64,000 nucleotides of DNA. Source: Bacteroidota bacterium. GTDB taxonomy: Bacteria > Bacteroidota > Bacteroidia > Flavobacteriales_D > Crocinitomicaceae. Under the pieces are notes generated by a model, which saw only the letters and a program-made list of their open reading frames with translations, had not been told where the DNA came from and ran no database searches. The stretch covers positions 2,323 to 66,322 of the forward strand of contig JBDLVK010000083.1 of the NCBI GenBank assembly GCA_039804825.1, given 5' to 3'. This document shows, in pieces, positions 43,866-44,541 of this stretch (positions are counted from its first letter, which is position 1; each line of letters begins with the position of its first letter). A program made the translations under genes and the position numbers.

Positions 43866-43938
43866 TGCGAGGTGGAGCAGTTGGTAGCTCGTCGGGCTCA
43901 TAACCCGAAGGTCGTCCGTTCGAGTCGGGCCCTCGCTA
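43866..43938 (+). tRNA. Initiator tRNA-Met (CAU anticodon), no encoded CCA
   Basis: Cloverleaf folded by hand. D arm gagc/gctc. Anticodon arm tcggg-ctCATaa-cccga has the three G-C pairs typical of initiators. T arm gtccg-ttcgagt-cgggc. Position 1:72 is a U-U mismatch. Close to E. coli tRNA-fMet throughout. Confidence 0.9.
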
Positions 43939-43946
43939 CAAGTAAG

Positions 43947-43976
43947 AAAGCTAGTCAAATTTGACTAGCTTTTTTT
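43947..43976 (+). terminator. Rho-independent terminator after the tRNA
   Basis: aaagctagtcaa / ttgactagcttt stem followed by a T-run. Confidence 0.7.
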
Positions 43977-44001
43977 ATGGAATCTATTTACTACGAAATA
44001 C

Positions 44002-44268
44002 ATGTTTGTAACCTACGCATTATACTCCCCGACATTCGACAAGATTTATATTGGATTCACTTCTGATTTAATTGACAGATATAATTCGCACAATTTTTTA
44101 TCCACTAAAGGTTTTACTAAAAATTTCAGGCCATGGATTGTTGTTTATGTCGAATTCCATGAATCAAAACCTGCCGCAATGAAACATGAAAAAGAACTAA
44201 AATCGAGTAGGGGAAGAGATTTTGTACGAAAACAAATAGAATTGCTCGGGCTCATATCCGTCAGCTGA
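44002..44268 (+). CDS. Small GIY-YIG nuclease-domain protein
   Basis: 88 aa. YALYSPTFDKIYIGFTSDLIDRYNSHN (GIY..YIG..R..H) and EKELK. The 3' end overlaps a partial tRNA copy. Confidence 0.8.
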   Translation: MFVTYALYSPTFDKIYIGFTSDLIDRYNSHNFLSTKGFTKNFRPWIVVYVEFHESKPAAMKHEKELKSSRGRDFVRKQIELLGLISVS

Positions 44269-44300
44269 CGGACGTCCGTTCGAGTCGGGCCCTCGCTACA
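44240..44300 (+). pseudogene. Partial duplicate of the initiator tRNA (anticodon-arm-like segment plus exact 3' 28 nt)
   Basis: gctcgggctcata, then the new 16-bp palindrome tccgtcagctgacgga, then cgtccgttcgagtcgggccctcgctaca. This last stretch (44273-44300) is identical to 43913-43940. No 5' acceptor strand. Confidence 0.85.
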
Positions 44301-44306
44301 AAGAAA

Positions 44307-44334
44307 ACCTGAGTCATATGACTCGGGTTTTTTT
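44307..44334 (+). terminator. Rho-independent terminator after the partial tRNA copy
   Basis: acctgagtca / tgactcgggt stem followed by T7. Confidence 0.65.
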
Positions 44335-44505
44335 ATGCCGTAAACTGAATCAAGCCGAAGGGTTGAATGAAGGATTAAGGCATAAAAAAAGAGTTGCGAA
44401 GCAAATCGGTTTTCTTTGTAAAGCTCCAAAAACGTCCATTCGAAATGAAATGGAGGATATTCGGGCCTTCAATACGATTAAAGAACATAATATGTATCAA
44501 AACAC

Positions 44506-44541
44506 ATGTTTGTAACCTACGCACTATTCTGCCCTCGCTAC
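44506..44541 (+). pseudogene. Remnant: first 25 nt or so of a GIY-YIG ORF fused to the last 11 nt of the tRNA
   Basis: catgtttgtaacctacgcac matches 44001-44020 (one mismatch at the last base). gccctcgctac matches 43929-43939. Confidence 0.75.

Follow-up and report, generated by a model that had tools for sequence, protein, structure and literature searches.

A tRNA-linked GIY-YIG nuclease cassette with a hairpin-bearing pseudo-tRNA in Bacteroidota, a candidate homing-like element

A 64,000-nucleotide (nt) stretch of a Crocinitomicaceae contig (JBDLVK010000083.1, positions 2,323 to 66,322; referred to here in full as the window) contains a unit of about 360 bp that consists of the tail of the initiator tRNA (positions 48-76), a terminator, a short spacer, a gene for a GIY-YIG nuclease of 88 amino acids (aa), tRNA positions ~22-37 and a conserved hairpin. 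The nuclease gene is the sole gene of this unit. The layout is far beyond chance and was found to be a family trait and not a local accident. The unit is a discrete one that is gained and lost at the tRNA gene, outpaces the divergence of its hosts, multiplies in tandem and also decays. With moderate confidence we favour the interpretation that it is a selfish, homing-endonuclease-like cassette which lives in the tRNA transcription unit and enters and amplifies by recombination through tRNA-derived homology arms, cleavage by the nuclease being a step that we infer.

Cassettes behind tRNA genes across Bacteroidota

At least 542 relatives of the 88-aa protein were found in a scan of species-representative genomes and the best 80 loci were examined (L-numbers denote the homologous loci compared). 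Close relatives occur in metagenome-assembled genomes (MAGs) of Crocinitomicaceae and Fluviicola-like bacteria, and more distant ones occur across Bacteroidota with identities down to about 50%. The loci include some from culturable Fluviicola, Wandonia, Aquirufa and Mangrovivirga strains. Out of the 80 loci, 70 had contigs long enough for the upstream region to be evaluated, and 62 of these contain a tRNA gene on the same strand upstream of the open reading frame (ORF), at a median distance of 58 nt. The same hairpin lies at or just past the stop codon in 80 of 92 full-length ORFs. It is followed by a copy of the T-arm and acceptor strand of the host genome's own tRNA, which mostly matches the local tRNA exactly though the tails vary among genomes. 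The tRNA homology of these pseudo-copies ends sharply at positions 37-38 and resumes at 47-49.

An earlier reading, made from the letters of the window alone, had described the layout of the locus as an intact tRNA, a terminator, the 88-aa GIY-YIG ORF, a partial tRNA copy and a second terminator, and every one of these elements was recovered where it had been placed. Its expectation of homologs beside tRNA genes with duplicated 3' parts was borne out at the 62 loci, where the pseudo-copies match the tRNA of their own genome. Some of its descriptions need to be amended. The element was said to target the initiator tRNA, which holds for the window, whereas in some clades the cassette lies behind an elongator-type tRNA(CAT) or tRNA-Arg(TCT); the pseudo-copy then stems from the tRNA concerned and has the same hairpin at the corresponding position. 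The duplication is real but extends beyond the tRNA 3' half, as it comprises positions ~22-37, a hairpin that replaces 38-47, and then 48-76. Finally, the 16-bp palindrome is indeed perfect, although it is a conserved feature of the family and not a local novelty.

Intact cassettes were observed with only decayed tRNA tails and no functional tRNA upstream in L006, L008 and L011 (ORF at 2501), and the cassette of L008 lies directly 3' of a protein-coding gene. Cassettes are evidently able to persist, or land, away from a live tRNA gene. At L066, the 3' acceptor strand (CCCAGAT) of the tRNA predicted by ARAGORN (2392-2466) is mismatched to the 5' strand, while the pseudo-copy at 2784-2806 carries the compensating base (CCCCGAT); the mismatch may be a sequencing error, or the displaced tail may be the better one. 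Contigs end within 200 nt of the cassette in ten of the 80 loci (L007, L032, L034, L035, L041, L060, L064, L065, L081 and L082), the cassette repeats being frequent assembly break points in Bacteroidota MAGs. A few MAGs titled Planktophila, Syntrophomonas, Moraxellaceae and Chryseobacterium gleum look like mis-binned or mislabelled Bacteroidota contigs.

Presence, absence and decay of the unit

The orthologous site was located in related genomes through homologs of the upstream 246-aa neighbour gene. The number of intact ORFs at this site was found to be zero in L083, L084, L085 and L089, one in the window, L003 and L004, and two in L086. Empty sites in which the tRNA is followed directly by the sequence from 44301 had been foreseen from the window, and this is what L083, L084, L085 and L089 contain; an identical tRNA adjoins the same neighbour gene as in the window and is joined to the sequence starting at 44301, the 360-bp unit being absent. 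The empty and filled alleles are colinear to the base.

The window also contains what had been described as a decayed second copy of the element. Its counterpart runs to codon ~26 in L083 and L004 and is a full ORF in L003, and the relic is the remnant of an older unit. An ORF stump of 26 codons is all that L083 retains, and in L003 the intact unit lies distal to an older relic. Another relic was observed in L089 (~1368-1529 in locus coordinates, between the ankyrin and NAD_binding_10 genes), where a decayed tRNA tail, the terminator t1, the spacer and the first ~18 ORF codons lie ~1 kb past the first relic. A gene for a 230-aa NAD-binding protein separates the two relics; an old array either received inserted DNA at this point or was split.

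Nine of the 80 loci contain tandem arrays, the largest of which has four ORF copies (L024, on a 3.7-Mb contig), and frameshifted or internally deleted ORF copies are common. In at least seven lineages, the arrangement closes with a pseudo-tRNA followed by a terminator, a spacer and a further ORF copy that breaks off after its first 10-56 codons, where unrelated DNA begins. These truncated right ends look like the outcome of copying that ran past one unit and ended without homology, as is expected from one-sided homology.

That the repeats are errors of assembly or binning is hardly credible. All sequences come from MAGs or metagenomes and, as the ten contig ends given above illustrate, repeats do break assemblies. 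However, dozens of assemblies made independently share the architecture, with multi-megabase contigs and complete chromosomes among them (L024, L062 and L074), the exact locus of the window was recovered from two independent samples, and the colinearity of the empty and filled alleles speaks against such errors as well.

The earlier reading also likened the duplication to attL and attR sites. The geometry is of this kind, but there is no integrase and break-induced or homologous recombination is the more likely mechanism. Taken literally, the comparison would imply a circle, with the unit excising through recombination of tail with tail, or through cuts at two palindromes of an array, and reinserting by a single crossover in the 29-nt tail. 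Host recombination or an unlinked recombinase would then act, and the nuclease would be accessory only or would cut the palindrome. The difference between the filled and empty alleles is exactly that of a single crossover within 43913-43941, the arrays and the deletions back to a solo tail (L089) fit repeat-mediated excision, and most of the hairpins are perfect palindromes whose cleavage would yield self-compatible ends. Nevertheless, we consider this route unlikely as the unit lacks a recombinase, a non-replicating circle of 360 bp with a crossover target of 29 bp would be inefficient, and neither the right ends that stop inside a second ORF copy nor the retention of positions 22-37 is explained.

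The synonymous divergence (dS) of the ORF is 0.14 to L003 and 0.30 to L004, whereas four flanking genes have values of 1.0-1.8. The cassette, with a dS 5-10 times below that of its neighbours, is therefore far younger than the divergence of the hosts. Two properties of homing genes are found at this locus, namely presence/absence polymorphism at a fixed site and, from the gap in dS, horizontal spread relative to the host. The ORF is also more similar than the flanks in several other pairs of loci (in L006 and L008, the ORFs are 86% identical and the flanks are not alignable), though the pattern is not uniform and the support from these pairs is mixed.

These values bear on another explanation in which nothing is mobile and the ORF is an ancient, vertically inherited, tRNA-linked host gene that serves, for example, to resolve DNA structures or transcription-replication conflicts at a busy tRNA gene, with unequal crossing-over making the arrays and losses and gene conversion keeping the copies identical. 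The phylum-wide distribution of proteins that diverge so far would suit such a gene, as would the purifying selection on the ORF (the ratio of nonsynonymous to synonymous divergence is 0.21 against L003 and 0.15 against L004) and the absence of relatives from phage contigs. Its Slx1-type fold would suit it too, since Slx1 maintains repeated rDNA in yeast (PMC1564403). The explanation nonetheless appears improbable, because it leaves unaccounted for the low dS of the ORF, the empty, single or double occupancy of one site among relatives, the frequent and degenerate relics and the targeting of different tRNAs. Moreover, the unit in the window carries t1, which does not lie next to the tRNA in the empty alleles, so unequal crossing-over alone cannot derive the unit from them.

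The conserved hairpin and the pseudo-tRNAs

The hairpin was compared in 51 distinct sequences that had been pre-selected for at least four of six pairs. The six stem pairs are paired in 98.7% of cases, a percentage that is biased upward by this selection, while compensatory changes are unaffected by it. Three of the pairs covary, one example being U:A in 29 sequences against C:G in 22. In most copies the loop is AGCT and the hairpin a perfect palindrome; other loops include TGA, TTT and CACC. A single copy was found in the 64 kb of the window. Across the 80 loci there are 130 copies within the arrays and three in the remaining 229 kb, and those three are likewise situated in pseudo-tRNAs; the hairpin is not a dispersed repeat. 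The functional tRNA was never found to bear a hairpin in the examined loci. A metagenome scan with the 17-mer TCCGCCAGCTGGCGGAC gave 98 matches in 80 loci examined, among which only L157 is a pseudo-tRNA and the others look like chance GC-rich matches.

Unexpectedly, pseudo-copies were also found with similar hairpins in place of the D-arm, the T-loop or a portion of the acceptor stem. Downstream pseudo-tRNAs were often observed to contain an extra palindromic insertion in the T-loop, such as TCCGCCGCGGCGGA, TCCCGATAGCTATCGGGA or TCAGTCAGTTGACTGA, usually directly after GGTTCGAGT. They occur in the pseudo-tRNA after the ORF in L010, L008, L020, L043, L062, L011/L016, L022, L024, L040, L044 and L077, and at 44445-44460 in the window, which makes the T-loop a second site of recurrent breaks or insertions. 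In several genomes, the functional tRNA is preceded by arrays of pseudo-copies of the 5' side, which comprise the leader and positions 1 to ~58. Tandem arrays of this kind were observed in L062 (2035-2390), L068 (2040-2380), L073 (2180-2380), L075 (2270-2340), L063 (1919-2095) and L067 (2215-2280), where the usual hairpin stands in for positions 38-47 and a second conserved one, TTCGCCAGCTGGCGAA, for the D-arm. In L073, a hairpin is found even within the acceptor stem.

The covariation, and the tolerance of the non-palindromic loops TGA, TTT and CACC, raise the question of whether the pseudo-tRNA and hairpin act as RNA, that is as a 3' untranslated region or noncoding RNA with a processing, stabilising or autoregulatory function, or, as the extreme case, as a guide to the tRNA gene. 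The right-end RNA of IS200/IS605 elements guides TnpB, and the present hairpin resembles omega-RNAs in overlapping or abutting the stop codon, with sequence identical to the target after it. The region also folds far better than its shuffles (z = -5.3). On the other hand, a catalytic domain of 88 aa is very small for an RNA-guided enzyme, which makes guidance unlikely, most loops are AGCT and give a perfect DNA palindrome, and hairpin-bearing pseudo-copies occur without any ORF and upstream of the tRNA. No Rfam family was matched, and the complementarity may stem from the copying mechanism itself and not from selection. A purely RNA-level explanation is accordingly given little weight, somewhat less than the circle or the host gene, but an RNA-level role of the hairpin and tail is possible as an addition to the homing-like cassette.

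Several candidate origins and structures were rejected. An extended RNA helix between pseudo-tRNA positions 22-29 and the T-loop is predicted in the window but was dismissed as a family trait, since the two segments look non-complementary when the elongator-type tRNA sequences are inspected. Hairpin-capped ends or snap-back synthesis would not explain the origin of the hairpin, as the tRNA sequence next to it is not copied in its arms and one and the same hairpin recurs throughout the phylum. Retro-copying of a mature tRNA was dismissed in view of the lack of an added CCA at the ends of the pseudo-copies. Complementary central loop bases were found at two loci (L063 and L069), too few to support a flip-flop inversion of the hairpin loops. 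The Rfam scan of the locus returned only the tRNA and sub-threshold chance matches, one of which (Leu_leader, 29 bits against a cut-off of 50) is a chance match of the hairpin plus terminator.

The nuclease and its expression

The 88-aa protein matches the Pfam GIY-YIG family (PF01541) with 49 bits against a cut-off of 22.6 (E 7.5e-13). Residues Y16, G18, R26, H30, N31 and E63 are invariant among 23 sequences and Y5 is nearly so; by analogy with I-TevI and UvrC, the Tyr motifs, Arg, His and Glu presumably have the catalytic roles. The AlphaFold2 (AF2) model has a pLDDT of 93.7 and consists of a single GIY-YIG domain across all 88 aa, with the order of elements E-E-H-H-E-H-H and the three-stranded sheet and flanking helices of the GIY-YIG fold. 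Foldseek gave a probability of 1.0 to Slx1 and HIGLE but only 0.54 to I-TevI, and the profile matches in the PDB were 1zg2 (2.4e-6), 1ywl (4.8e-6) and 7wme (1.3e-4). Among solved structures, bacterial UPF0213 proteins, Slx1 and plant HIGLE are closest in both sequence and fold. Neither Pfam nor the AF2 model revealed an auxiliary or DNA-binding domain, so the module that gives homing enzymes their specificity for long sites is absent, and searches of NCBIfam and PHROGs with the protein gave no family. The protein is thus predicted to be a minimal Slx1/UPF0213-type nuclease with putative catalytic residues. Its C-terminal peptide GLISVS, which is kept in many homologs, is the translated anticodon loop and hairpin.

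The cassette appears from its sequence to have no promoter of its own. The motif TAnnTTTG, which we take to be the Bacteroidota -7 promoter box (a consensus from Bacteroides promoter studies), was found within 80 nt upstream of 37 of 62 tRNAs and only three of 88 GIY-YIG ORFs, compared with 55 of 1000 random windows used as background. A terminator T-run lies just upstream of 80 of the 88 ORFs, and in some loci the ATG abuts the terminator. With the box at the tRNAs but not at the ORFs, and a T-run in between, read-through from the tRNA promoter is most likely the sole source of ORF expression. In the window, the probable promoter at 43795-43828 is likely the only one that serves the cassette.

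How the cassette may enter and amplify

The favoured homing-like interpretation can be set out as follows. Read-through from the tRNA promoter would give low expression of the nuclease, which would break DNA in or beside the tRNA gene. The likeliest place for the break would be the segment of anticodon stem and variable loop (38-47), which is exactly what every pseudo-copy lacks, although the break points at 37/38 and 47/48 are only suggestive of a cleavage position. After a break in this segment of a recipient tRNA gene, one end would pair with the 5' part of the donor tRNA and the other with the tail that follows the donor hairpin. Filling of the gap would then copy the tRNA 3' part, the terminator, the ORF, the pseudo-tRNA 5' segment and the hairpin, giving exactly the observed structure with an intact tRNA restored. 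Because the arms come from a conserved tRNA, the cassette could enter without any homology in the flanks. Tandem arrays, deletions back to the empty site and truncated copies would result when repair misaligns the repeated tails. Pseudo-copies without positions 38-47 would be immune, and the hairpin would make the displaced copies uncuttable or be a structure that is bound by the Slx1-like enzyme, or both. In a variant of this scheme, the enzyme would recognise the palindrome, or a folded single strand of the transcribed tRNA gene.

A number of observations weigh against this interpretation. Both the site of cleavage and the activity of the nuclease are things that we infer. The intact tRNA in a genome with the cassette is identical to that of the empty allele and would still be cleavable, and since the functional tRNA is unchanged the classical immunity in which insertion destroys the target does not apply. 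The protein has a catalytic domain only, and its structural relatives are structure-selective and not sequence-specific, which argues against long-site recognition of the I-TevI or SegB type. The tails of the tRNA and the pseudo-copy are nearly always identical, whereas copying of arms between species should sometimes give differences; spread within lineages or gene conversion is therefore needed. Left unexplained by the simple model are the similar hairpins that replace D- and T-loops in pseudo-copies to either side of the tRNA, and in particular the 5'-side arrays of hairpin-bearing pseudo-tRNAs. Finally, no relatives were found in viral contigs among 137 pattern matches, which leaves the proposed transfer without a vehicle.

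More tentatively, the cassette may represent a new class of minimal mobile element, in which a promoter-less, structure-selective Slx1-type nuclease rides on the transcription unit of the tRNA, recognises a DNA structure and not a long sequence, and carries universal homology arms cut from tRNA. The structure recognised would be either a strand that forms a cloverleaf or hairpin in a heavily transcribed tRNA gene, or the element's own conserved palindrome. The 16-nt hairpin would be a separately spreading 'immunity patch' that break repair writes into dispensable tRNA copies at the D-, anticodon/variable- and T-loops. If this is the case, the patch would explain the pseudo-tRNA arrays riddled with hairpins on both sides of the functional gene, and the universal arms would let the cassette enter any genome with a similar tRNA.

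Anatomy of the locus in the window

The coordinates of the locus are given in Table 1. The sole tRNA gene in the window is the tRNA-Met(CAT) at 43866-43939. Its initiator features are a 1:72 mismatch, flagged in the Rfam scan, A11:T24 and an anticodon stem closed by three G-C pairs (GGGCTCATAACCC, GGG/CCC); the last two were read directly from the letters. The repeat of the tRNA 3' end had been noted as 28 nt, but its identity extends over 29 nt (43913-43941 and 44273-44301). It has two copies in the 64-kb window and none in 100 shuffles, and is hence not a generic dispersed repeat, the outcome that would have spoken against the element. Terminator t1, together with the 23-nt spacer before the ATG, was assigned to the inserted unit because t1 is absent from the empty alleles L083 and L089, where t2 adjoins the tRNA. 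The final eight codons of the ORF consist of pseudo-tRNA and hairpin sequence and its stop codon lies inside the hairpin loop, the last codons traversing GCTCGGGCTCATA (44244-44256), which corresponds to tRNA positions ~22-37 with a small deletion. Searches with tblastn and blastn gave this locus alone, with no further cassette copy in the window.

Downstream, the segment 44500-44530 repeats the start of the ORF with two mismatches in 26 (chance expectation 0) and is fused to GCCCTCGCTAC (44531-44541), the final 11 nt of the tRNA; this fusion, some 200 bp further on, had been recognised correctly from the window. A third, decayed tRNA tail at 44433-44477 had been overlooked, and it occurs at the equivalent place in L083, L089 and L004.

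Table 1. Features of the cassette locus, in window positions
Feature	Position	Strand	Basis and remarks
Probable promoter of the tRNA unit, Bacteroidota-type	43795..43828	+	TTTG near 43795-43802; -7 box TATCTTTG at 43821-43828; read from sequence
Intact initiator tRNA-Met(CAT)	43866..43939	+	ARAGORN; Rfam tRNA 60.4 bits; positions 48-76 form the left repeat copy
Left 29-nt direct repeat	43913..43941	+	tRNA C48 to 2 nt beyond the 3' end; identical to 44273-44301
Terminator t1	43944..43978	+	Inverted repeat; 13-bp hairpin (43944-43975) and T7
GIY-YIG nuclease gene, 88 aa, Slx1/UPF0213-type (predicted)	44002..44268	+	ORF list; Pfam
Pseudo-tRNA 5' segment gctcgggctcata	44244..44256	+	D-stem 3' strand, anticodon-stem 5' strand and anticodon loop to position 37; 3-nt deletion
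Perfect 16-nt palindrome/hairpin TCCGTCAGCTGACGGA	44257..44272	+	Replaces tRNA positions 38-47
Right 29-nt direct repeat	44273..44301	+	Displaced tRNA T-arm and acceptor 3' strand; identical to 43913-43941
Terminator t2	44304..44334	+	Inverted repeat; immediately 3' of the tRNA in empty alleles
Older-unit spacer	44335..44432	.	Inverted t2-flank copies at 44375-44390 and 44408-44420; kept in L003, L004, L083 and L089
Decayed third tRNA 3'-end copy	44433..44477	+	Alignment; 16-nt T-loop insertion at 44445-44460
Relic of older ORF copy	44500..44541	+	Spacer end and codons 1-8; internal deletion joins the tRNA-copy end

The segment 44297-44420 was observed to form a long imperfect inverted repeat, in which TACAAAGAAAACC (44297-44309) pairs with GGTTTTCTTTGTA (44408-44420) and TTTTTTTATGCCGTAA (44328-44343) pairs with TTAAGGCATAAAAAAA (44375-44390). 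The junction of the tRNA end and t2 thus partly recurs in inverted form, and this is conserved in L003, L004, L083 and L089. Two large neighbouring genes (41318-42973 on the minus strand and 45152-46897 on the plus strand) both have a C-terminal Por_Secre_tail sorting domain of type IX secretion. The ORF at 44626-45219 encodes an ankyrin-repeat protein; the listed ORF at 45152 overlaps its end by 68 nt and probably has its true start further downstream.

Comparison with known systems

Several known systems share parts of this architecture. Islands that use integrases to target tRNA genes also insert at the tRNA 3' part, restore the tRNA and repeat its tail at the far end, here as an exact 29-nt copy. 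The cassette, unlike them, is 360 bp and not kilobases in length, its repeat is preceded by tRNA positions 22-37 and a hairpin, and it stacks in tandem. The 360-bp unit contains no integrase or other site-specific recombinase, which sets it apart from such islands.

Homing endonucleases occur in group I introns of bacterial tRNA anticodon loops, for example in the cyanobacterial tRNA-fMet intron. They belong to the same class of genes, and the discontinuity at the anticodon loop is similar, but the functional tRNA of the cassette is uninterrupted, no intron was matched in Rfam and the nuclease family is different.

In the IS200/IS605 elements with TnpB or IscB (OMEGA systems), and in repetitive extragenic palindromes (REP) with their REP-associated tyrosine transposases (RAYT), a small nuclease gene likewise overlaps a conserved hairpin at its 3' end and is followed by target-derived sequence, and hairpins are the hallmark of the element as they are in the cassette. 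In contrast, the cassette has no transposase, its hairpin is not dispersed genome-wide and its nuclease fold is unrelated. Nor does it resemble insertion sequences or miniature inverted-repeat transposable elements in general, as it has no terminal inverted repeats, occupies a single locus in the window and has copies only at tRNA loci.

Slx1, At-HIGLE and the bacterial UPF0213 proteins (BH0048 and EF2693) are the best matches of the protein in both sequence and structure, and bacterial minimal GIY-YIG members consist, as it does, of a single domain without an auxiliary domain (PMC1564403). These proteins differ from the cassette protein in being treated as repair or structure-selective housekeeping enzymes, and in the literature on them we found no report of linkage to tRNA genes, tandem arrays, pseudo-tRNAs or a hairpin. 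In searches of the full-text literature (subscription-only papers being outside their scope) and in the 2006 survey of the superfamily, no tRNA-linked minimal GIY-YIG cassette with a hairpin-bearing pseudo-tRNA was found to be described. This agrees with the early impression that it is not a standard annotated class, and there is a real, though less than even, chance that its mechanism is distinct enough to count as a new one.

The nearest precedent is SegB of phages T4 and T6. In T-even phages, this free-standing GIY-YIG endonuclease homes, with a motif in the tRNA T-loop as its recognition site (PMC2330249), and it drives a UvsX/UvsY-dependent tandem amplification of the tRNA-plus-segB unit that includes truncated nuclease copies (PMC13096335). 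It shares with the cassette, as interpreted here, a GIY-YIG gene among tRNA genes, a tRNA sequence as the target, spread by break-induced recombination, recombination-dependent tandem amplification and no clear self-immunity (PMC2330249; PMC13096335). However, SegB has a C-terminal DNA-binding region and belongs to the clade on the side of I-TevI and UvrC, whereas the cassette protein has 88 aa and lies on the Slx1 side. The cassette is also chromosomal and was not found in viral contigs, and its hairpin-bearing pseudo-tRNA and its own tRNA-derived arms are not present in SegB as described (PMC2330249; PMC13096335).

If the favoured interpretation is correct, the cassette would be among the smallest autonomous-looking mobile units in bacteria, with ~360 bp and one 88-aa protein, and the bacterial Slx1/UPF0213 family, which is large and uncharacterised, would gain its first concrete biological context. 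The cassette illustrates a way in which a selfish nuclease could overcome the need for flank homology in homing, namely by taking its arms from a universally conserved gene. The pseudo-tRNAs and tandem repeats that such cassettes leave in Bacteroidota genomes interrupt assemblies and mislead tRNA annotation, and the conserved hairpin together with a tiny nuclease makes a tractable biochemical system. Taken together, the cassette resembles SegB, as a free-standing homing gene, in the way it works, is island-like in its geometry and has a protein of the Slx1/UPF0213 clade, and it extends the link between SegB and tRNA genes from phages to bacterial chromosomes.

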